A stretch of DNA of 62,877 nucleotides, the filler included, from Dimargaris cristalligena (Eukaryota), in assembly GCA_003614675.1 (NCBI GenBank). It is 3 parts of 3 records of this genome, joined end to end, with 100 filler letters (N's around TTAATTAATTAA, not from the genome) between each part and the next. Parts side by side here need not be neighbours in the genome. Positions count along the whole stretch, not along the records: positions 1 to 20,912 come from ML002682.1; 2 more parts are not named here. One strand, 5' to 3'. The notes under the pieces were generated by a model. That model saw only the letters and a program-made list of their open reading frames with translations, made no database searches and was not told the origin of the DNA. The position numbers were made by a program, and so were the translations under genes. Below, piece after piece: positions 14,501 to 62,877 of the stretch (its first letter is position 1; each line of letters starts with the position of its first letter).

Positions 14501-14911
14501 TACATTCACCAGCCTAAAAGTCAAGTCCATCTATTCCTCTCTCTATCCCGTAATACACACCTGCTTTTCCTAATAATGGGCTACTCTTCGCCGTTCCTAA
14601 CCCCGCTCTACTATCTGACTGCACTCAACTAAACCAACCATTTTCCCCGTCAAATTTTAACGATCCGTATTTAGCTAATATTGGCAAGTGCCCCTATTGT
14701 ACCTATCCATCCCACCCAGGCCATCGCGGGTTTAAATACCACCCCCCCCGCCGTGTTTCAGATAACCGCAACGTCTACCTTTTCCCCTATCCTGTTTTCC
14801 TTCCCCCAGAGGTCGTTTTCCAAATTTCAAGTCCAAGTATCTACGGTCACCGATTTTGCTCAGTAGGCCTTGTGTTTCTGATTATACCTACCCGCTCATC
14901 CCTTGGTCACC

Positions 14912-16469
14912 ATGCGAGTATCCGTCCTTTTTGGCTTGTATCCTCTGGCCCTGTTGGGCCCGATGGTATCTGCCATGCCGAGTAATCCAATGGACAGGTT
15001 TCCTATAGAGCTTCAACAAGAGGTGTTTGGCCATTTACCCCCACTTAGCAAGCTAATGGCCACGAACGTGAACCAAGAGTGGCGGGACATTATTTTGAAT
15101 GACCAGAGAGTCCGTAATGCCAAGGTAAATAAGAACTACACGGCTGATTATAGTAGTTTTTTATTTAGTGCTTAATGATATTAGTTCTCTCAGTGCTACC
15201 ACATCTATTGGATTGCATAATTAAACCTGCGATAGTCTTAGCCAGGCACCATGTTCCTATAGCCAACCCCCCCCCCCCCCCGTCTGGCTACCTCCTATTA
15301 TATAGTGTTTTATTAATTTGAGCTAATGCTAATACCGTAAATCATCATTCCATTCGTAGGCTATGGATGTGTTCATGTCCAACCCTGCTATCTACCCGGC
15401 CGAGGGCTCCAACCGTGCTACCCTGGACAGCAAACCTGGGAATCTTGGCCCCCTTTTTGACAACCTTATGCGCTCAATAGTGGTCAAGATGGTTTACCGC
15501 CATTTGAATCAACTTGGATTCGATGCACTAGGCAACCCCATATCTAATCCGACTCGACCTACCGCCCGACTTGCTTTAAACCCCAAGGTCCCGGAAGCTA
15601 TTAAAGCCTTCAAGCCCGAGCTCGAATGGCTCCATGCGAATCTCATTTCCATCCAAGTGGACGACAGGTCGAACGATATCGTCAACGCCTACTTCCCTGT
15701 CATCAACACCATTCACATAGGTGATTTGACCCACCTTGAGCCATTGGTAAATTACATGTGCACCGATGATTTTGCCCCGACGATGGGTCGCACCCTGGCG
15801 AACTGGATGCCTGAAAGCTATGTCAATTTCTTGAACATTTTAATGTTTGGCACTCAACCTAGGACCGAACCCATATCCGAAGTCACCCACATGGAGCAGC
15901 AGCGAGATATATATTTACCCGAGAATATCAAGCGTGATCTCCGTGTCACATTGATTCAGGCTACCACCTATCTAGCCACCCAGTCGGGTAATTTGCAACG
16001 ACTTAAGGAGATGGCTCAAGCCACGAGCCCATTTGAATTGAACACGGGCAGGGCGAATCCCAATAGTTTGGCCAGATATGATCGAAACATGGCCGCATTG
16101 ACCGCCATTCTTCAAGCCAACGCTCTGCTGGCCGAAGAGATATTAGCCATGCAGCCCCCAACCCTACCCCGACAGGTACTGGGCTACTGTGCCATTAAAA
16201 TGGGGTTCACTACCGAGGAGCATCTCCCCCAAGACTGGCAAAACCCTTCAGAGGAACAATTGAATCAAGCGCTCCCCATTAGATCGATGGTTGGTGATAT
16301 GGCCTGCGCCAGCGAATTGTACGGTTTGGCCACACCTATGATTTTGGGAAAGGACGGAAAGATCTCCCTGCTTTATTATCCTCTGAACGATCATCCGGTG
16401 GCATTGGCTATTCCCACTGGCTTGTCGACCGAGGCTGACATTGATAGACCCCTAAACCCTGCAGATTAA
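14912..16469 (+). CDS. Predicted secreted F-box protein, ~440 aa; exons 14912-15124, 15360-16469
   Basis: Signal peptide MRVSVLFGLYPLALLGPMVSA; F-box consensus MDRFPIELQQEVFGHLPPLSKLMATNVNQEWRDII; phase-0 intron AAG|gtaaat...cgtag|GCT joins the 368-aa ORF in frame. Confidence 0.8.
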
Positions 16470-17912: not shown

Positions 17913-18113
17913 TTACATGCCGCATCTAGCAGGCTTAAGGCTAGGAGACGGCCTAATAGGCATTCTGGTAGGAAAGGGGCTTCGACGCTGAAGCCGATCA
18001 ATTTGGGAATAGACGCTTCCCTGACCGTTAGGCAGCGAGGCTTTGACATGGGCCAGGGTACAGGCCACGACGACCGAGACGAGGAAGGCAATGGTAAACT
18101 TGGTAAGATACAT
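17913..18113 (-). CDS. Small secreted prepropeptide, 66 aa, with Kex2-type site
   Basis: Hydrophobic signal MYLTKFTIAFLVSVVVACTLA(HVKA); LQRR dibasic site; TATATAAA ~150 nt upstream (18261-18270); AATAAA downstream (~17805-17810, minus strand). Confidence 0.7.
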   Translation of the reverse strand: MYLTKFTIAFLVSVVVACTLAHVKASLPNGQGSVYSQIDRLQRRSPFPTRMPIRPSPSLKPARCGM

Positions 18114-22933: not shown

Positions 22934-25900
22934 TTATTCTACAGCCCGTTGACCGACGCCAGGGGGGCTCGCCGAGCCATTGCCAAGATAATTGCCCCCG
23001 CCTAGACTCTTGAATGGAAGTCGCCGTAGTGGGAGCTCAGCGTGCATTTTTTCAAACACACTGGTGGCCAGAGAAAATAGCTGCGATGTGGTTGTGCGTG
23101 CGGTGGATGGGGTAGAACCGTTGGCTGCCGACAGAGTAGCGAGGTCCTTTCTAGGACTACCGCCGGCTCTAGATACCAGGGTGCGAAGAGACGAGGTTGA
23201 CGAGGTAAACGAACTGGACATGGAGTCCAGGGTAGCGTCATCCAGCTCACTATCGTCATGACCTTCACCACTGCAGCCGCCGACAGTTACCATCGACACA
23301 TCATCACGGTAGTCGACAAGAGGAATCCCACTTTCAGTTCCAACCGTCATCATGGCTGCAGTGTCAGAATCCAAGACCAATTCATCGCCGTCGCACAGGA
23401 AGTCCATGTAGTCCTCGCGTTGTTCTAGGAGCAGCACCACGTCGTTAAGGGCTCGAGCGGAAGCAAAATCAATGGGCCGTTTGCTGTTGAAGGTTAGTAG
23501 GCTGTGCGATACACCAGCGTCAAGCAGCACCCGGACCACCTCGACGTGACCCACCCAGGAAGCAAAGTGCAAGGCAGTCATACCATTGCCATCCTGAACA
23601 TCCCCCTTGATACCGTGGTCAAGCAAGAACTGGGTCAACTTGGCCATTCCTAGAATAGCAGCGGCGTGCAGGAGCGTCTGGTTGGTCTTGTCATGTAAAA
23701 GAGTAAGGGAGTTCTCATCTAAAGTAAAGGAGGTCTGAAGCGAAGAAAGGATGGCCAGAACCGCCACTTCGAGGGCTTCCACGTCTTGTTTACGGAAGGC
23801 CGCGCTCAAGTCCTGTAGTAGGCCCATGTGCTGGGGGGAGGTACGGAAATAGCTGAGTGATAGGTCGATGGGACTAGGGGGGGGTAGGGTGGCCGCATTA
23901 TGGAGATCGGTGGTCAGGTCGACCGTATCTACGGACAGGGACCCGAGCGGGGAGGTTGACTGGGGGAAACTGGCCGACATCCCGTTGTAGCCATGCATGT
24001 TGCCCGCCGAGGGTGCGCTCGTTCTGCGGTTGGCTCCGTTGTGGGGGCCACCCTCCGTGGATACAATACGCATGGCAATTTGGCGGGGATCCTCGATCCG
24101 TCCAGTCATTTTGATCCCCACGACCTGCAGAGCTAGTTCCATCAGTTGACGCTCCGTGTCATCCACGTAGGTGAAGATGGGAACCGTATCCTTGTTGTCA
24201 ACCAACGAAGGGAACTCGCCCACGGTGGGTGACTCCCCAAACGAGACCATCACGGGACCGGCTACTGACGACGGGGGTAGGACACACACCATGGTGTTAG
24301 AAGACCAAAAGTGGGTGACTTTAGCAGGAGTATCCCCGAATAAAATCACCAGATTTTCGTGGAACCCAGTGCCGAGTAAGGTGACTTCGGTGCCACCGCT
24401 CACGGGACCCTCCATAGGCACCAGCCGGTCTATACGTGGGGGTCGGGAATCATTCGTGGGGGAAAACTGGGCACTGAATACACTGCTTTGCGGACTAGCA
24501 CTCTGGCTGTTGGTCAACACCTGGGTGATGGCCATGGGGTTGTGACTCTCGTTCAGAAGGGTGAAGTCGGGGATATTCACCGAATTGGCTCCCAGAAAAG
24601 CGTCCTGGCCCGAGCTTACAAAGGGGGAGTAAGAGGTCAGAGGCATACCGGGGTAGGAAGGGCCAACCAACCGATCCGGGGGAGGCATTAGGGCAACTTG
24701 GCTATAAGGGGGAGAGTTGGCCGGAAACCCAGTGGGTGGGGAAATGGATAGAAAATTAGGGGGAAACAGGGGCGTGGAGGGGGGTGAGAGCTGGGCGGCC
24801 AGGAGAGGCGACGGGATCGGGGTGTTACTACACAGCGGGGTGTTCGCAATCGAAGGATACCCGCTCAGGGCAGCCAGAGTATTGCTATCGATGGTCGACA
24901 TCCCCCCGGCGGGTTTGAGGGTGGCGGGTGAATTCAGTACTGAACGACGGGCCTTGGACACGTCATGGCCCAAGTTGATCTCGGCGGGGTTCTTGTGCGA
25001 TAACCGTCCTTCCGGATCATACTCGGCCTTGGGTCGTTTGCGGTCACTCTTGAACTTGGTGGACTTATGGTCATCGGTGATCATAATGGGTGGCGAGATA
25101 CCAGTTGCAATTACATTACCCATATGGTCCTTCATAGTCAGGTAGATGCAGAAGCCCACCTTCTCGGCGTGATGCCGACAGTAGCAAGTGATACGGGCGG
25201 GCAGATGCACCTCACCCTTATGGAATTCCACCAGATGGACGCAATTGAAAATCAGGGTCCGGTGGCGCTCCATGGCAATCCGCTCTTCGTCCCAGTCGGT
25301 TTCCATAGAAGTGTTAGAGTGGTCTCCGGTCGGTGAACCCGGACGACTCTGTGCCGGGGTAGTGCTATTGCTGGCAAAGTGCCGACTGCGATTCTCCTTG
25401 CGGCGCTGGGCCCGTTTATACTCACGCCGGATACAACCGAGGCACACCTCAACCTTCTTAGCAGGATTACTGGCGCAAATGACAGTGGCCTCCAGAGATA
25501 GGGTTTGGTGGATCGGTGGGGTCGGGGGCTGCTCGATAACCTGGCCTTGACGGTTGCGGCCCCGGTCCTTGATTACCGATAGTTCGGGAAGTCGCAAATG
25601 GGGCCAGTGCGTGACGGTATCGCCCTTGCTGTCGACCAATTGTAGGCCCAGCCGAATCTGAGTTTCCACTCGGGACTTAGCCCCATGCTGGGCAACTCCC
25701 AAAACCACAATTTGCATGCTCCGGTTGACAATTTCTTGGACCAACGACGCGGGTATCTGTTGCATAAGTCCGAGAACGCTGGTCTCGCTCATGGTTTCAG
25801 GCTCACCCCGGGCCTTGCGTAGGCACTCCAGGATAACGGCCGGGCTTGCCACGGTATCGCCATAGGATGGGGCCATGGAATCGGAATGAGTTTCGGGTTT

Positions 25901-26398
25901 CTTTCCCCGCTGCTTGGATTCGAGGTTGGAGCTGAGCAAAGTCCCTGCAGTAGCGGAATGACCAGCGGCTTTAGCTGCCGCCAGGGCCTTCAGGGCGCCA
26001 GGTGACCGAAGAAACTGGGAGGTCGACGAATAACTGCTGGGACCACTGAAGCCAGGCGACGAAGCCCGGGTCGGGGAGATGAGCGGTGAGGCCTGGGCGG
26101 ATGGAAACATGGGGGTACAGGGGGAAAATTGGGGGGTCATCATCAGATGGGGAAGGCTGAGAGGAGTGTCCAAGTTAAGCTCATCGAGGGCCGGATCAAG
26201 GAGGGGACTCAAGTCGCCCTGGCCGGTAGACATTGATCCAATAGGCCCCCGGGGAATGGTTGAGGTGGTGTTCGACGCACGAGAAGACGCGGCTGCCATC
26301 ATGGGGGAGAGGAAGGTGCCAAAGTTGAAAGAGTGAATCTCCTCGGAAGAGGTGGTGGAATGCCCCACGGGCTTATCAGATGAATTTTGGGATAGCAT
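22934..26398 (-). CDS. SPT23: Spt23/Mga2-family transcription factor (DNA-binding-like domain, IPT/TIG, ankyrin repeats), 1154 aa
   Basis: KSRVETQIRL, VCLGCIRREYKRAQRRK, RITCYCRHHAEKVGF, PIMITDDHK; IPT domain PRIDRLVPMEGPVSGGTEVTLLG; LMELALQVVGIKMTG; ankyrins TLLHAAAILG and GMTALHFASWVGH. Confidence 0.95.
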   Translation of the reverse strand: MLSQNSSDKPVGHSTTSSEEIHSFNFGTFLSPMMAAASSRASNTTSTIPRGPIGSMSTGQGDLSPLLDPALDELNLDTPLSLPHLMMTPQFSPCTPMFPSAQASPLISPTRASSPGFSGPSSYSSTSQFLRSPGALKALAAAKAAGHSATAGTLLSSNLESKQRGKKPETHSDSMAPSYGDTVASPAVILECLRKARGEPETMSETSVLGLMQQIPASLVQEIVNRSMQIVVLGVAQHGAKSRVETQIRLGLQLVDSKGDTVTHWPHLRLPELSVIKDRGRNRQGQVIEQPPTPPIHQTLSLEATVICASNPAKKVEVCLGCIRREYKRAQRRKENRSRHFASNSTTPAQSRPGSPTGDHSNTSMETDWDEERIAMERHRTLIFNCVHLVEFHKGEVHLPARITCYCRHHAEKVGFCIYLTMKDHMGNVIATGISPPIMITDDHKSTKFKSDRKRPKAEYDPEGRLSHKNPAEINLGHDVSKARRSVLNSPATLKPAGGMSTIDSNTLAALSGYPSIANTPLCSNTPIPSPLLAAQLSPPSTPLFPPNFLSISPPTGFPANSPPYSQVALMPPPDRLVGPSYPGMPLTSYSPFVSSGQDAFLGANSVNIPDFTLLNESHNPMAITQVLTNSQSASPQSSVFSAQFSPTNDSRPPRIDRLVPMEGPVSGGTEVTLLGTGFHENLVILFGDTPAKVTHFWSSNTMVCVLPPSSVAGPVMVSFGESPTVGEFPSLVDNKDTVPIFTYVDDTERQLMELALQVVGIKMTGRIEDPRQIAMRIVSTEGGPHNGANRRTSAPSAGNMHGYNGMSASFPQSTSPLGSLSVDTVDLTTDLHNAATLPPPSPIDLSLSYFRTSPQHMGLLQDLSAAFRKQDVEALEVAVLAILSSLQTSFTLDENSLTLLHDKTNQTLLHAAAILGMAKLTQFLLDHGIKGDVQDGNGMTALHFASWVGHVEVVRVLLDAGVSHSLLTFNSKRPIDFASARALNDVVLLLEQREDYMDFLCDGDELVLDSDTAAMMTVGTESGIPLVDYRDDVSMVTVGGCSGEGHDDSELDDATLDSMSSSFTSSTSSLRTLVSRAGGSPRKDLATLSAANGSTPSTARTTTSQLFSLATSVFEKMHAELPLRRLPFKSLGGGNYLGNGSASPPGVGQRAVE

Positions 26399-28469
26399 GG
26401 TGCCGTTAGTATATAATATCAGCGCGACGTGTTAGAACAAGAGCAAAATGGTATTGACCCGGTGCCGGTAAGCCTCCGGGTTAGGTCACTTAAGCCAATG
26501 GCGGATTTTGGTAAAAGATGAGAAAGGCAGAAGTCGTCAAGCGACTTAATAGAAAATTAAAAGGGATGGACAATAAATGAAAATAGAAAACGAACGAGGT
26601 ACTACTGGGCTCGGTCGGTAGTGTTTCAACCTTAAATAGAGGGGGGTCGATGAAGCAGATATAGGGCCAGATGCCAAAAAAGCGAGTTGAAGGGGGTCAC
26701 TGGACCGCCTGATAAGCAAGGGAAAACGATTATTCCGCGACACGCGGTATAGACCAGAGGTGGAAAGGTCCAAGTACTGGAGGAGGTGTCACAGAGTGAG
26801 CCGTTCGTTGCACAGTTACTATGAACGGTGGTATCACGAATCAACGCTACGCTGGTTGGTTATAGTGGAAAAGCAAAGCTTAGCGTGTGCACCAATATCT
26901 AACGAACGACGTGTTTGTACAGTCAAAACTGAAATGAAGAAAAAAATCAAGGTAAAGGAGTTTGGCAAAAGGAACGCAGATTCACCGTAGATGGGATACT
27001 GATAATGAGCCGATAGTATTGAATAAGGTAAAAGCACGAGTTAAAGGGTACAGAAAATTATGCACGAGGCTTGGGATAGAAGAATGGAGCTAGTGAATGA
27101 GCCGAGTGAGTAGCCAAGGGGTGTTGTTTAAGAACGGGCGGTTTGACACATGTGCAGGGATGAAACAAACGGGGGATCTGTCTGCTGAAGATATGAGGTA
27201 ACGCAGCAATAGGCGGTCGGGCTATTCTCGTCCGGGAAGGATTCGAAACACCGATAGTGCATAGAGTATATTGGCAAAGGTATATATATAAATGAATAAG
27301 TCAGAAAAGGATGATGATCATGAGGCAATTTCGATGGCAGGGTCCCCAGGGATCAAGAGACGATGACCATATATATAGAGCCCATTTCGACCAGGTTACG
27401 TATACTACCGACATATATGGCCGCTGCATATAAAAGGCAGTTGCCATTAGCAACTAAAATCCAGGTAGTGATGGGTGCCCAGTTCCTTGTAAGCAATAGC
27501 ACCCCCTTAGACACTACCCTGGATCTAGCGACCATGCAGAGCACCACATGATGTCATACTACACGCTAAAATTCCGGGGGTGGGGCCTATCCACGTATAA
27601 AAAATAAGGGGGGGGGTAGCATGCGGGTATAAAACCCAGGAGAGGGTTGAAGGGAGGAAGGGATACAGATATGCCTTATTCTGCTGAACCTCTTCCTCTT
27701 AGGCCTTGATGCCGCCCTGGGCATAGACACGGTTAACTTGCTCAGACACACTTCTTCCCGCGAACCAAACCCAGCGGACTGGACGAAGGGGTAGGAGCAG
27801 TGGAGGGTCGAGACGAGTGTCCCAAGGAGCTGTTCGCGGTTACACAGGAAGCAGAGACACCCAGCCTGGTTGGCCTAGAAATATATATGAAACACGAGGA
27901 CCTGGGGACGAGGTAGGGTAGCTTACCTATAGTTCAATTATCGGGAAAAGAAAGGCGGGTAGAAGGGTCAAACAAAACGAGATGGACCAAGAATGAGGTG
28001 GGGGTCGAGTCGAGTCGAGTTTGGATTGGATTGGATTGGCGACTGGGCTGATGTGAAGTATTCAGGGGAGAAGCATGTGGAATACGAGGAAAACTGGCAA
28101 ATAGGCCCGAAAGTAAAAGGCCACGCACGGGGTAGGAAAGTAGAGGGGGCGCAACGACAGATAGTGCGAAAAAATGGACAGAAAAGACAACAGCAGCAGG
28201 GTACCGAGACTAAATACCGATAGACAATAGATAAGTGAATGGATGAAGTGTGTGGTTTTTCAAACAGCGGTATATAATGGGAAACAATGAGAAATCAAGG
28301 ACGCAAAATACGGGAGGATATGTAGGAGAAGTGATGAATAAAGTATAGGTATTATTATACTAAATGTAGGAGGAATGTGACAACATACGAGAGGGAAAAT
28401 GGCCTATTTTGTGAGCAATATCAGAACCGTAGAATTTGGGTCGATTCCAAAGAGAGAGGGGGGGGTGAG

Positions 28470-34164: not shown

Positions 34165-35739
34165 ATGCTCCAGCACTTGGATATGATATTGGGCGCGCCC
34201 GTTGGAGCTCTATCTAATTTCATTGGGCGGCACCGCGGAAAGAAGCATAGTTATAAGTACAAAGGACCCACCCCTAACGCTATTTGGAACAACGGTCAAA
34301 AAATCCGCGGGGTGAATCTAGGCGGCTGGCTAGTTCTAGAAAAATGTAAGTGTGCTTCTACTAATGTGGACAGACTATTCCAATAACTCTTGGAATTATT
34401 TGGTAACCAAAACCGTCGGAGTGAATATCCGGTAGACTAACGGGAAACTAATAATCACTTACTTCAGCATGAGCGTTGTCACTTTACTACCGCTTCTTTA
34501 TTTTCCAGGGATTACGCCTAGCGTATTTCAACAGTTCGACAACACCGCTATGGCAGACACGGTGAAGGATGAGTACACATTCTGCCAGAACCTTGGATCG
34601 GCGGAAGCCACTCGTCAATTACGGGCACACTGGGACAGCTGGGTGACGGAAGATACCGTCCAAACTCTGCACAGCTACGGAATCAACCTTTTACGCATTC
34701 CCGTTGGCCATTGGGCTATCGAACCCTTTGGAAATGAGCCCTACGTGCCCGGTGCCCTCGAATACCTCTGGAAAGCGACTGCCTGGGCGCAGAAATGTGG
34801 CATGAAAGTATTGGTCGATATCCACACCGCCCCGGGTTCCCAAAATGGGTTTGACAATAGCGGCCGCGCAGGCCCAATCGAATGGACGAAGAGCTCGTCC
34901 CACGTGGCGCATTCCCGACAGGTCGTCCAAAAGTTGAGCCAGCTAGTGTACGATTCTCCTTGGCGCTCCACGGTAGTGGCCATCCAGCCGTTGAACGAGC
35001 CGACCAACTGGGGCATTGATATGCACCGGCTTCAATCGTTTTATAAAGATAGCTACAAGGCCATCCGAGCCAAGTCCAAGGATACAACCATGGTCATTAG
35101 CGACGCCTTCATGGATTGGGGCTACTGGGTCAACAGCATCCCCAAGAAATGGACCAATATCGCCCTCGATGTGCACATTTACCACTGTTTTACGGACGAG
35201 TACCTGACCCTCAGTGCGAACCAGCACCTGTCCAAGGTTGCGGAAAATGAAAGAAGGATCGTCGATATGTCTCAGCATATGCCTGTAGTGGTGGGAGAGT
35301 GGTAAGTCGTTGGTAATTAACTTGGTTGTATACCTAGGCAAGGCCGGTTCGGCTTTTAATATAGTAGGACAATTTACAGATTAATGTATATTAATATAGG
35401 TAATATCCCCCTTGATTTGTGTTTTATATCTTCCGCCGCAGGTCGCTGGATACCACCAAGTGCTACGAAAACTATTTTCGAAGCAATTTCATGCAGGATG
35501 ACGAATGGGATAAGCCCAATGCTAAGCGCTACGACTGTGACTGCGGAAAGGAATCGGACCTTAACCAATACACTAATGCCTACAAGAACTTTCTGACTAC
35601 GATGGGCCACTCCCAAACCAGTGCGTATGAAAAGGGAGCAGGCTGGATCTTCTGGAACTTCCGAACCGAATCCAATCCTCCCTGGAACTACATGCTGGCG
35701 GTGGAGCAGGGCTGGATCCCCCGATTCCCCAGTACCTAG
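34165..35739 (+). CDS. GH5 exo-beta-1,3-glucanase (Exg1-like) paralog A, ~423 aa; exons 34165-34345, 34509-35301, 35442-35739
   Basis: IRGVNLGGWLVLEKWITPS, DEYT, HWDSW, RIPVGHW, PGSQNGFDNSG, NEP acid/base, DVHIYH, VGEWS nucleophile, GWIFWNF; both GT..AG introns restore frame. Confidence 0.95.
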
Positions 35740-50141: not shown

Positions 50142-50714
50142 ATCTATCGTTCCTCCTTAAAGTGTCCGAAGCCCTCCTCTTGCACTCTCTCAACTCTTTG
50201 GATTATAATATTGATATATACCATTATTTCACCTCGGTTGTGCGAGATCCCCCCTTTTTTTAGAACTGAGCATACATTGATATCCAGTGCCGTTTAATCG
50301 AGTCAACTCTACTTAGTTCCACCGCTCGTGTATTACCCTTCCTCACTTACTCATTGCCGGAAAATACTATTACGACCTAGCCAGACTTTAAGGTCGCACC
50401 ATCTACCTTGACTAACTGCGAGACACTGGCTAACCTCAGTTTGGTAGCAGTGATCCCTTCTCGATCCCATCACCCATTGCCTCATTGGCGAGTCTTTCTT
50501 GGCGCATACTCGCCAACCCTTCTGCCCAGTCCATCTCCTTCTTTGCCCTTCCTTTACGCGCCCCAACCGTTGAGGCACGCCTCACCCCTCTCTACTGGTC
50601 GAGTAGAGTCCCACTTTTTCTAACTGGCGCAGCCCATACAGAACACACCTCTGTTTACGACCACTGCTGGTCCCCGTGGTATATTGCCTACTGCCTAGGA
50701 GGTCCATTGGTCAA

Positions 50715-53141
50715 ATGGCCCAAAACAAGCCTCCTAAACTTCGGCGCGCCTGTGACCGCTGTACCGAAAAGAAGATCAAATGCGATAATCAGCGGCCATG
50801 CGCCGGGTGCATCCGAAAGAACACCCCCTGTCACTATAGTCCAGCCTACAAATCAACCCTCAAAACCATCAAGGTATCCCAGGTGAACCCGGGGTTTAAT
50901 GTCCTGATTCAAACCACCACGTCCCTGCAGGACTCTGTCCCTTCTCTGGCCGCCCAGCCGGAATCCTCCGGCCTAAGGCCTTCGCCGCCCCCAATATTAG
51001 CCCAGAGAGCGGATCTCGGCAGCCACAACTCCCTTTCTCCCCCAGTCATGGGGAGCTCCCCTAATTATCGGTTTCAACACTATGGGCTGCAAAACCAAAG
51101 ATCCCTCGATGCCAGCTATGCCCCAGGGGAATACCACAATCTCGCACTTGATGGCGACCGTTCATCCCCACCCCCCGCCCAGATCATGGCTCTCATTGAG
51201 CGTATCAATGGGCTGGATCTCGCCGCTCCACTTACCACTCCAAACGATCTATTATACCACCCGGAACTGGCCCGCCACGCCATATCCAAATACTACCACC
51301 TTAACTTCCGCTCCGGCGCCAGTCTTTTTTTTGATCACTTTTGGTACTTGGCCAAGCGCAATCAAATACCCCACATTGTATATAACTCTATATTGGCGTG
51401 TAGTATCCGGCACAATTTGGATCTACATAAACTTTCGCACATTCAAGTTCGTAACGTGGTAAGCCCATACATCAGGCGTGCTGAAGATGACCTCATCAAG
51501 TGCAGCGATGCGCCTTCCTTAGAACACCTGGCAGCCATCCATGATTTAATGAGTTGTATATTGTCCAACGGCGACCAAACTCAATACAACGCCTACTCAG
51601 GTAAGACCGATACTGCTTTAATCGAATCGAATCGCGCAGTCTATTTCTATTTTCTCAACGACTCCTCGTTATTAGTGCTGTTTAAAGGCACCTCTATGTA
51701 CTATCTGAGGGCATCATTATGTTATTTAGTCTGTCCAACTTCACAATTTGCCACGCAGTTCCAATGGTGCCACGCCGTCTAAACAACGCGTGTATATATT
51801 GTTATGTATATCCTTCCAATTATATGTGCCCTTTTTGAACCCCCCTTCCCCAATTCCATCATCATTATTTAATTCAGGATTTGCTATCAAGTAAGTCTGC
51901 AATATTGCTACATAAGTTGTACATCAAAAGCCCCATTTTGTACTTTACACGCATATAAGTGGCTCTATTTTCACTCACTCATTCATTTCAGCTATTTAAC
52001 AACCATACGCCCCCCCATTCTGAAATCTCGAACCTTTCTAATTTACTGTTTATCTTACCTATTTAGAATGGCAACCGCACTCAATCTTCGGGCCACCGAT
52101 TCACCGCCGCCCTCCGAGCCCGAACCACCTATTGTGGCTCTTAACCGGGAAATTCGCCGTTCTTTGTATTGGACAATGGTACATAGCAGAAGCCTCATTT
52201 CCCTATTTTCGCTTATTCCGCTTCAGGTCGGCCTGCCCTCCGACGGAGTTCAATTTGTCAACCTTCGTCGCCTAGAATCCCTGGCCCGTACATGCCTAAC
52301 GAGTGGGCAGGATTGGTCGACTATTGCGCCTGTCATCCCCACCACACCCTGCAGCATCTTTAATTGCCCCGAGTCGGAGCAATTGATGGGTCTCATGGGA
52401 CTAGTGGTCGAATTCATTCGGAAACGGTATAGTTGCCGACTCGTTTCCCCTGCGGAGGAATGTGCAAAGGTAGAAGAGACGCTTATTCGCTGGTATGAAC
52501 AGATCACCCCGCTCTACGCCCTGCCCACTTGGGAGCAGGCCCGCCAGCTCGCAGTAGCGCATCCCCACCACCTGGCCGATATTATCCAGCTTCATGCGCT
52601 TTACTACTGTACATACATATTTATCTTTATGTCCCACCCATTTTCCTCCCGTGTGAGTCCGATGGACCATGCCCTACCCGACCCCCAATCGCCACCCACC
52701 CATGGTACCAGGGTCACTCCTATCTCTGGGCAATATTGTAGCTATAATAACCCCTTGCCCTCCGGTGCCGACCAACCGTGGTGTCCCCCCAAACCCTGCG
52801 ACCCTGAAGCCCTTGGTGTCGAGCTTGACTTCCCGGGCCGTGGGATTAAAGTGGCCCAGCGCTTCTACCACGAGGTTTTCCCCCTGATCCGTTTATTGTC
52901 GCCCCGGGTCATTCGTATAGGAACCGGGGTATATCTCCACTGGATTATTTTGATATTCACCCAGGCCTGTTCTTCCAAACCCGCCCCAACGGAATCGACG
53001 TTGTCCTCCTTCCGTCGGGCTATTGAGGAAATGTCGGCGGTATTGGAATCCCTGGGCTGCTACTGGCCTAATCAAAATATTAAACTCTTGCCGATTTTCA
53101 GTTACAACGGGGCTTTTACCCCTTCACCCAAGCGAAAATAG
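50715..53141 (+). CDS. Zn(II)2Cys6 transcription factor with fungal-specific TF middle domain, ~657 aa; exons 50715-51600, 51878-51890, 52067-53141
   Basis: ACDRCTEKKIKCDNQRPCAGCIRKNTPC cluster; spliced SGFAIKMATALNL...REIRRSLYW matches the Fungal_trans GxAxRMAxxLxL...ExRRRxxW motif. Confidence 0.92.
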
Positions 53142-61010: not shown

Positions 61011-62877
61011 TGTTGGAAATTCATTTCCCCCGTCCCACTGATTCCATCTCTGTGATTGGCTCGTCCTATACTTGGGACTTTACTATAGCCGTTACTATAT
61101 CATCCTATAACTGGAACTTCGTCCTAATCGTTATTACTGCTATTATTCAATTCAATAAAACCAACCATGGGCATCTAGCTTTGCCCCTTGCAGTTCTTTC
61201 TCTCTTCTTTGAATTGTTTTAGTTGTATCTGAAGGCACTTGCATTTACCATCAAACTTATATTTCCAACAGGTTATGAGCCCTGGTGTGTTTCAAATAAA
61301 CTAATCGTTTATACCTCAATCACAATATTCATTTACTATCCATCTACCAAACTGGATACTCATCTATCTACATTTCATTTTGAAATTCATTTATCTAACT
61401 ATCCATCTATTCATCCATCCATCCCTTTCAAGTATCAATCTACCTTACAACCTACTCTTACAATGAGTTCTAAACTTTCTAAACTTAACATCCAACCCCG
61501 TCAGTTTGATGGTGATAACTACACTGCTTGGGCCCTATCTATGCGCCTATACCTGCAATCATCTGATCTTTGGGAGATTGTAGAAGATGGTTACAAACCA
61601 ACCACCACTGATGATCCTAAAGGGAAAGCCTTAAACAAGCAGTACCTGAAGGATGATTAAATGGCTTCATTTATGCTCCATGCATCCATGAATGACCAGT
61701 ATGCGGACTCCCTCGATGGCAAACTGACGGCCAAAGAAATCTGGAAAACAATGGTGAATCGCTTCGCCAAACCACCTACGGCCAAAGTCCTAACTCTATA
61801 CTCTAAGTTATATTGAATCCATCAGGGAAACCAATCCATCTGTCAACTGGCCATGAAGATTCAATCTCTCAATGCGGAACTCAAGAAATACGACCTTACG
61901 AGTGACTAACAACTGACTCTCCTATTTCTACAGGCAGTGGATGAAAGATTCCACTTGACAGTCAGCCAATGGCATACCCGGGACCTGGACTCTTTTGTTT
62001 TCGACAGTGTAGTTCAATCATTTATCGAGGCAGAACAATTCCTGGCCAATCGGGAGGCGACACCGAAAACAATGTTCGAGTCCGCCATGACTGTAAAAAC
62101 TAACCCGGGCAAGTTTAAAGGTAAGAAGGGTAAGAGTAAGGGGGTTAAAAACACACAAAAAGAGGGTGATACCTCATACTGTGCTATTCATAAAACTAGT
62201 GGACACTCCACTGATGAATGTTTTCGAAACCCCCTGCATAAAGGGAAAAAGGAAAGCCAGGCTGAACAAGCCCAGCTAGTACTTAAAATTCCTGAACATG
62301 CACTCAAAGTGAAGGATGGCAAATATCCGAAGTCAACTTGGTTTATTGACTCGGGTGCATCCTACCACTATTGCCCTGATCGTACTTTATTTGATAATTA
62401 TGTACAAGAAACTCGCCATTTAATATTGGCAGATGGAAAAGAGTTATCAATCTTGGGTTATGGGACAGTCAAGCTTGACATCCTAGATCCATCCAATAAT
62501 ACTCGCTGATTAACCCTATATAATGTGGGCCACTGCCCCACTTTGGGTTATAATCTACTTTCTGTACCAGCCAGTGATGAGAGGGGAATTAAATTCACCT
62601 TCCATCAAGGCCGTTGTACCATTCAAGAGGGGAATACTCCCCTTCTCCAAGTCAACAAAATACACTCTTCATACCCTTTTTCAGTTAAATATCCTCATAC
62701 TTCAATGGCAAATTTAGCTATTGAAATTCCTAAACCTCCTTCCCTTTTGGAGGTCCATTATTCTCTTGGCCATATTAATTTCGATACCCTCAAGCAGGCT
62801 GCTAAAAATGGCATCATAAATGTTGACCAAAATTCTCTTTCTGATTATTTTAATTGTGAAGTTTGTATTTCAAACAA
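61011..62877 (+). mobile_element. Ty1/copia LTR retrotransposon, 5' part (LTR 61011-61270, PBS 61271-61282), runs off the window
   Basis: 260-bp LTR with perfect 10-bp inverted termini TGTTGGAAAT/ATTTCCAACA; PBS GGTTATGAGCCC; gag-protease-integrase order. Confidence 0.96.
61463..62877 (+). pseudogene. Copia gag-pol pseudogene with four in-frame stops and no frameshift
   Basis: FDGDNYTAW..LQSSDLWEIV (gag), TAKEIW, zinc knuckle CAIHKTSGHSTDEC, protease WFIDSGASYH, integrase N-terminal HYSLGH..CEVC, all in one frame interrupted by TAA/TGA. Confidence 0.93.

Follow-up and report, generated by a model that had tools for sequence, protein, structure and literature searches.

The closest analogue of the gene reported here is SSGP-71, a family of salivary E3-ligase mimics that are secreted by the Hessian fly (Mayetiola destructor); outside the F-box the two share no sequence relationship, which makes SSGP-71 an analogue and not a relative. 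According to excerpts of two sources, most SSGP-71 genes encode a signal peptide together with an F-box that binds a Skp1-like protein of the host, and the F-box is missing from some members (PMC10317074, PMC4617103); the excerpted part of the second also reports that RipG7 of Ralstonia binds Arabidopsis SKP1-like proteins (PMC4617103). Here we describe a gene of the fungus Dimargaris cristalligena (GenBank assembly GCA_003614675.1) whose product appears to combine the same two modules. The gene starts at position 14,912 of a 62,877-nucleotide stretch made of three parts of the genome joined end to end (the window, by which we mean the whole stretch of DNA analysed), in the part that comes from record ML002682.1. 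D. cristalligena belongs to the Dimargaritales and is a haustorial mycoparasite; the excerpted text of one source describes Dimargaritales as attacking other fungi by means of an appressorium and a haustorium (PMC9866270).

The architecture of the encoded protein, a signal peptide followed by an F-box and a helical domain, is very likely real, and the protein plausibly represents a new fungal effector family. The explanation that we consider best overall, at a probability of roughly 45%, is that the gene belongs to a multi-copy D. cristalligena family with a Sec-type signal, an F-box and an all-alpha domain, whose members act as mimics of host E3 (ubiquitin ligase) adaptors. As in SSGP-71, the signal peptide comes before the F-box and the family is multi-copy and peculiar to one parasite lineage, here with about eight loci and with five members that have both modules; one further member, P0012, may be comparable to the SSGP-71 proteins that have no F-box. 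The two families differ in what follows the F-box, which is about 13 leucine-rich repeats (LRRs) in SSGP-71 and an unrelated, predicted all-alpha domain without LRRs in Dimargaris, and in size, with 426 members of SSGP-71 against about eight loci here. They differ also in setting, since SSGP-71 belongs to an insect parasite, whereas in the Dimargaris case parasite and host are both fungi.

The bacterial RipG/GALA effectors likewise pair an F-box near the N-terminus with a target-binding domain, and they join the host Skp1-Cullin-F-box (SCF) ligase inside host cells. Other bacterial F-box effectors are AnkB of Legionella and VirF of Agrobacterium. As a class these proteins enter the host through injection by a type III or type IV system, have no Sec signal peptide and carry LRRs or ankyrin repeats, whereas the Dimargaris gene has an intron and encodes a Sec-type signal. 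The mature N-terminal end of its product, with an LPxEL...W pattern, resembles the canonical FBXO-type F-box, as in the F-boxes of Skp2, Fbxw7 and Fbxo4; canonical cytosolic F-box proteins, in contrast, have no signal peptide and act in the cytosol or nucleus of their own cell. Our literature search, which left most subscription journals outside its coverage, found no description of a secreted F-box family in fungi, Dimargaris or mycoparasites, and the excerpted text of a comparative study remarks on the scarce material that ties F-box domains to eukaryotic pathogenicity (PMC8146833).

Relatives of the gene were collected with an exhaustive HMMER phmmer search of 1.84 billion representative sequences, using exon 2 as the query. 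Nine matches were obtained at E<=0.001, eight of which are D. cristalligena proteins. We rejected the 1686-residue protein P0011 as a relative, as an internal repeat in it matches query residues 13-78 over and over at ~30% identity and the match is spurious. The D. cristalligena relatives amount to ~8 loci at 23-99% identity, and by this search the family is restricted to D. cristalligena. Restriction to one lineage together with expansion is typical of effectors. One relative, P0003 (H4R33_003608, 392 residues), is 99% identical to the product of the window gene; it is the corresponding protein of another D. cristalligena strain and the sole public model of this gene. Six members are full-length, namely the window gene, P0005, P0012, P0013, P0014 and P0015, with P0013, P0014 and P0015 being fuller models from the same clusters as phmmer matches. 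Five members carry a signal-peptide-like N-terminus, an F-box-like segment and the same C-terminal domain; in P0005, P0013, P0014 and P0015 the N-terminus leads into an F-box-like segment of LPKEL or APDEV type and then into the C-terminal domain. Within the window the gene has no paralogue: tblastn searches with both exons gave self matches only, with every other match at E>=2.2.

A preliminary description of the locus, made from the sequence, had suggested that exon 1 could be a shuffled cassette for delivery and Skp1 binding that might recur upstream of different second exons. No relative has the N-terminal module without the same C-terminal domain, so the two modules always travel together and exon shuffling is left without support. 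Searches for proteins that share exon 1 and differ in exon 2 returned only the same family: among longer proteins, exon 1 matched P0003 alone (25 candidates) and the F-box-region profile gave three matches, all of the same family (2632 candidates), both by word-index searches that yield weak evidence. Two annotations of one distant paralogue, P0009 and P0015, differ by a 30-residue skip (...GW/AEEAFF against ...TNK/AEEAFF), the end of which coincides exactly with the position that corresponds by homology to the acceptor of the window gene. This suggests that the intron position is old and common to the family, and not a seam left by recent shuffling.

Residues 1-21 of the window protein consist of an n-region (MR), an uncharged hydrophobic core (VSVLFGLYPLALLG) and the segment PMVSA, with Val at -3 and Ala at -1, followed by Met-Pro. 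This is the n/h/c organisation of a signal peptide, in which the residues at -3 and -1 are small and +1 is not proline. We scored N-termini with a home-made rule that has four parts: a basic and no acidic residue within the first 6-7 positions; a Kyte-Doolittle mean of >=2.0 over 10 residues; an uncharged run of >=17 residues; and a (-3,-1) site that falls in the range of residues 15 to 26. The rule was passed by 7 of the 251 ATG-started frames of >=60 residues in the window, among them the F-box gene and a GH5 enzyme, and in the family it was passed by all six full-length members and failed by all three N-terminally truncated models. P0005, P0013 and P0014 begin with MRS... and have sites VPA/QP, VSA/KP and VSA/QP after residue 21, so that a cleavage-like V-x-A site follows the same residue in four members; P0015 begins with MVTKVR... 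and has the site AYS/AN. A mitochondrial presequence was considered and rejected, there being one basic residue among the first 28 and no amphipathic pattern. On these comparisons of sequence, we regard the signal-peptide-like N-terminus as real and conserved across paralogues, and the protein probably enters the secretory pathway, with cleavage and secretion.

A Pfam scan detected the F-box (PF00646) in exon 1 at 22.8 bits (E 8.2e-5, positions 2-39 of 43 in the hidden Markov model), above the curated gathering cutoff of 20.5 bits; the F-box-like family PF12937 scored 17.1 bits, under its cutoff of 24.3. These results bear out the preliminary description, which had read exon 1 as a 21-residue signal peptide fused directly to an F-box. 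The window copy has the highest F-box score in the family, and sub-threshold F-box or F-box-like matches lie at the equivalent place in P0005 (13.7 bits), P0014 (14.4 bits) and P0015 (12.8 bits), which are three of four full-length paralogues. UniProt labels three paralogues as F-box domain-containing. When five family members are aligned, the residues P, E, V, W and L at consensus positions of the F-box do not vary. A profile of the F-box region of these five members was searched against PDB sequences, and 16 of its 18 matches at E<=10 are F-box proteins, led by Skp2 (E 0.0046) and Fbxw7 (E 0.011) and followed by Fbxo42, Fbxo4, FBXL2 and Dia2, each aligned on its F-box. We thus take the F-box of exon 1 to be genuine.

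An AlphaFold2 (AF2) model of the paralogue P0013, built from a 12-row family alignment, has a mean predicted local distance difference test score (pLDDT) of 67.9 and a predicted template-modelling score (pTM) of 0.66, and it places helices at residues 33-42, 46-51 and 56-79, where those of an F-box are expected. An isolated 50-residue F-box model was of low confidence (pLDDT 65, pTM 0.27); fold searches with it gave one row in Foldseek (E 9.2) and a best Z of 3.7 in VIA, with no F-box listed.

The same P0013 model shows a core at about residues 61-280 that is all-alpha (pLDDT 80-94), with the N-terminal 27 residues disordered. Exon 2 of the window gene gave no Pfam family and no PDB sequence match at E<=10. 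FBXW and FBXL proteins have WD40 repeats or LRRs after the F-box, and the Pfam scan found neither in the window protein or in any paralogue, which agrees with the absence of such repeats asserted in the preliminary description and sets the protein outside both classes. With the P0013 model as query, Foldseek found nothing in the PDB at E<=0.001 (best E 0.27, template-modelling score <=0.15), VIA-align in wide mode gave no Z>=5 (best Z 4.1, to PEX15, at a root-mean-square deviation of 5.8 over 136 aligned residues), and neither search yielded an LRR or solenoid match. A search of the ESM Atlas gave no usable match. We therefore leave the predicted exon 2 domain unclassified and, at the mean pLDDT of this model, make no claim of a novel fold.

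Two faint resemblances of the C-terminal domain were followed up. The family profile matched the ankyrin region of Kidins220 at a whole-sequence E of 0.011 and a per-domain E of >=12, and hhalign gave no support for an ankyrin-like C-terminal third in a comparison with the ankyrin repeats of an SPT23-like protein also encoded in the window (E 0.26, probability 0.2%). Conservation within the domain is highest at family profile positions 150-196 (exon 2 near AIKAFKPELEWLHAN...AYFPVINTIHIGD), and this block weakly resembles the C-terminal helical part of an Hsp70 chain (6zhi_A 179-227) at E 0.013 and 17 bits; Hsp70 was not listed by the fold searches, and the match could be due to chance. P0005, P0013 and P0014 have a common conserved C-terminal tail that ends in GEAPPGFQL and that the window protein does not have, and tblastn of five paralogues against the window found no downstream exon for it.

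Other features bear on where the protein works. The mature parts of the six full-length members lack a second hydrophobic segment and have 2-4 cysteines each, consistent with work in a reducing compartment. Retention in the endoplasmic reticulum (ER) was considered and set aside, as none of the six ends in HDEL or KDEL. N-x-S/T sequons are rare in the mature parts: 5 were observed against 14.8 expected by shuffling, with a P of ~0.001 that is overstated, since the counted paralogues are related. The window protein alone has 0 against 3.0 expected (P = 0.03), and nine other long open reading frames (ORFs) in the window, taken as a control, have 29 against ~27.9 expected. Depletion of sequons makes sense only for proteins that meet the ER lumen and yet stay unglycosylated, and so would fit a protein that is secreted and does its work in a cytosol. 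We treat it as a soft pointer to ER transit combined with cytosolic work.

We know of no F-box partner in the ER lumen, elsewhere along the secretory pathway or in the extracellular space. For a conserved signal peptide that stands ahead of a conserved F-box, the simplest explanation is therefore delivery into another cell, and for a haustorial mycoparasite that recipient would be the host fungus. In the mechanism that we propose, translation would begin at the first ATG, at 14912, and the 21-residue signal peptide would direct the protein into the ER and be cut off after VSA. The mature protein, with its F-box ~7 residues from the new N-terminus, would be secreted, most plausibly at the haustorium, and would arrive in the cytoplasm of the host fungus. 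There the F-box would bind the Skp1 of the host, a highly conserved protein, and the helical C-terminal domain would bring host proteins to the host SCF ligase; host proteins would be ubiquitinated as a result, with the Dimargaris protein serving as an E3-adaptor mimic. That the protein binds Skp1, enters the host and hijacks SCF, and in this sense acts as a host-SCF adaptor, is a tentative proposal. The fuller statement, in which F-box adaptors secreted at the Dimargaris haustorium redirect host SCF through a previously unseen all-alpha substrate-binding domain, is somewhat more doubtful.

If the proteins are secreted and bind Skp1, bacteria, a gall midge and a zygomycete-grade fungus would each have evolved the hijacking of host SCF on their own. 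Hardly any effectors of biotrophic mycoparasites are known. As a family of E3-mimic effectors, it would have no previously described counterpart in a fungus or in parasitism of fungus on fungus, and it would open a way to study how one fungus reprogrammes another through a haustorium.

Several points weigh against the host-adaptor explanation. We know of no mechanism by which a secreted protein is taken up into a host fungal cell in the group to which Dimargaris belongs. The rule used for signal peptides is not a trained predictor, and the relatedness of the paralogues lessens the force of the sequon counts. At the N-terminus, the P0003 model begins at Met49, within the F-box, and has no signal peptide, and the window copy, alone in the family, has in-frame methionines at residues 18, 22 and 27, from which an ordinary cytosolic F-box protein could be made. 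As to the F-box, those of the paralogues score under the Pfam cutoff, P0013 gives no match at all, and hhalign gave no support for an F-box in P0012 (E 0.62). The predicted F-box helices of P0013 have a pLDDT of 55-66, and the F-box may be decaying in the family.

The points concerning the N-terminus would be expected if the gene encoded an ordinary endogenous F-box protein of the cytosol or nucleus, either because translation of a shorter transcript starts at Met22 or Met27 or because the N-terminus does not direct the protein to the ER and is, for example, a weak membrane tether. A start at Met27 would give MDRFPIELQQ..., a typical N-terminus for an F-box protein. Expansion within a lineage is also frequent in fungal F-box families; the excerpted text of one source counts 31 orphan F-box genes in Choanephora (PMC5238444). 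However, P0005, P0013, P0014 and P0015 have no methionine between the hydrophobic N-terminus and the F-box, so in these four the F-box can be translated only together with the signal peptide. The n/h/c pattern and the V-x-A site are kept at 24-39% identity, as an untranslated region (UTR) would not be, and tblastn places residue 1 of P0005, P0013 and P0014 on nucleotide 14912 (E 8e-7 to 2e-5). In the window itself, 14912 is the first ATG after 335 bases that contain none in any frame (between 14576 and 14912), an in-frame stop lies 11 codons upstream at 14879, and the start context, caccATGc with A at -3, is the best among the five in-frame ATGs. A tether is also at odds with a hydrophobic core of ~14 residues, too short to span a membrane, and with a single N-terminal arginine and no net positive charge after the core, which by the positive-inside rule would place the C-terminal side across the membrane. 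We judge an endogenous F-box protein to be quite unlikely. The downstream start at Met18, Met22 or Met27 that the preliminary description had named as a finding that would refute its reading thus does not hold for the family, given the four paralogues, although the window copy itself may yield a shorter product.

The points concerning the F-box would be met by a different account, in which the family is secreted or resides in the secretory pathway and the F-box is a relic or a structural cap that does not bind Skp1. The helical domain would then be the only active part, working outside the parasite or within the parasite's ER or cell wall, and ubiquitination would play no role. The weak or undetected F-boxes of the paralogues suit this account, as does the uniformity of the signal-peptide-like N-terminus, which is the most evenly kept module (six of six members, including P0012). 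The third F-box helix of the AF2 model (residues 56-79) runs on into the helical core, and the absence of any F-box partner known to us in the ER lumen or outside cells would pose no difficulty. Against a relic stand the score of the window copy above the curated Pfam cutoff and the coincidence of the columns invariant over five members (P of LP, E, V, W and L) with the F-box consensus. The family profile also still picks out solved F-boxes specifically, and the low cysteine content and depletion of sequons suit work in a cytosol better than work outside cells. We consider a relic F-box unlikely and retain the host-adaptor explanation as the preferred one.

The gene model on which these comparisons rest agrees with the preliminary description, which had placed a phase-0 intron between the two modules and a 369-residue second exon after it (Table 1). 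As read from the window sequence, the ATG at 14912 opens a 71-codon frame on the plus strand that reaches a GT at 15125, and the spliced product has 440 residues. The intron has the donor GTAAAT, the acceptor TAG and two branch-like CTAAT motifs ~25-35 nucleotides 5' of the acceptor, and it contains a C15 run at 15267-15281. P0003 crosses the proposed junction identically (...RVRNAK/AMDV...), and the paralogues align across it without a gap. If the intron is retained, an in-frame stop follows at 15173-15175; for this reason the mechanical ORF list splits the gene into 14912..15175 (87 residues) and 15363..16469 (368 residues), a split to which the preliminary description had drawn attention. 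Residues 1-48 are contained in no database protein found by the exon 1 and F-box-profile searches. The annotation lesson is that the full architecture is in neither public protein set and that the lone model starts at Met49.

Of the two public protein sets of D. cristalligena that the searches brought up, one does not contain the gene and the other has it in shortened form, as would also be expected of a non-functional locus, that is, a decaying paralogue or a chance open frame. This is most improbable: both exons are intact across 440 codons with canonical splice signals, the protein of the other strain is 99% identical, with two substitutions visible over 392 shared residues, and the family's best F-box score belongs to this copy.

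Table 1. Features of the F-box gene in the window.
Feature	Position	Strand	Description
Leader/promoter-like stretch	14579..14911	+	ATG-free, pyrimidine-rich; possible promoter or 5' UTR
Exon 1	14912..15124	+	71 codons (213 nt)
Signal-peptide-like N-terminus	14912..14974	+	Residues 1-21; predicted cleavage VSA/MP
F-box domain	14993..15106	+	Residues 28-65, RFPIELQQEVFGHL...VNQEWRDII; PF00646
Intron	15125..15359	+	Phase 0, GT..AG, 235 nt
Exon 2	15360..16469	+	369 residues and stop; mostly alpha-helical family-specific domain (predicted)

Upstream of the start codon there is a TATA-like element, TTTAAATA, at 14731-14738, and a C8 run at 14743-14750. Several homopolymer C runs are visible in the non-coding DNA around the gene.

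Some other frames of the window have features of secreted proteins. Two GH5 frames (PF00150, the 'cellulase' family) lie 2.5 kb apart on the same strand, at 34436-35302 (+) and 37874-39175 (+), and in the second a start at 37910 is signal-peptide-like, MLHFSRSVTLLAVTLAISGHVFA; they may encode secreted glucanases of the mycoparasite. Short ATG-started frames at 18113 (-), 1.6 kb downstream of the F-box gene, and at 42335 (-) encode 66 and 68 residues with the signal-peptide-like N-termini MYLTKFTIAFLVSVVVACTLAHVKA and MKLLSALALTLATIGTLNMAHA, and could be first exons of small secreted proteins or such proteins in their entirety.

The remaining frames that we recognised are of other kinds. A 1165-residue frame at 22937-26431 (-) combines an SPT23/MGA2-type DNA-binding domain with an IPT/TIG domain and ankyrin repeats, as in transcription factors of the membrane-tethered type, and a Zn(2)-Cys(6) transcription factor frame lies at 50607-51779 (+). 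The gene for the mRNA cleavage and polyadenylation factor CLP1 appears as two ORFs at 39426-40974 (-), presumably with an intron near 39864-39936, and a retroelement Pol beta-barrel fragment is found at 61910-62506 (+).

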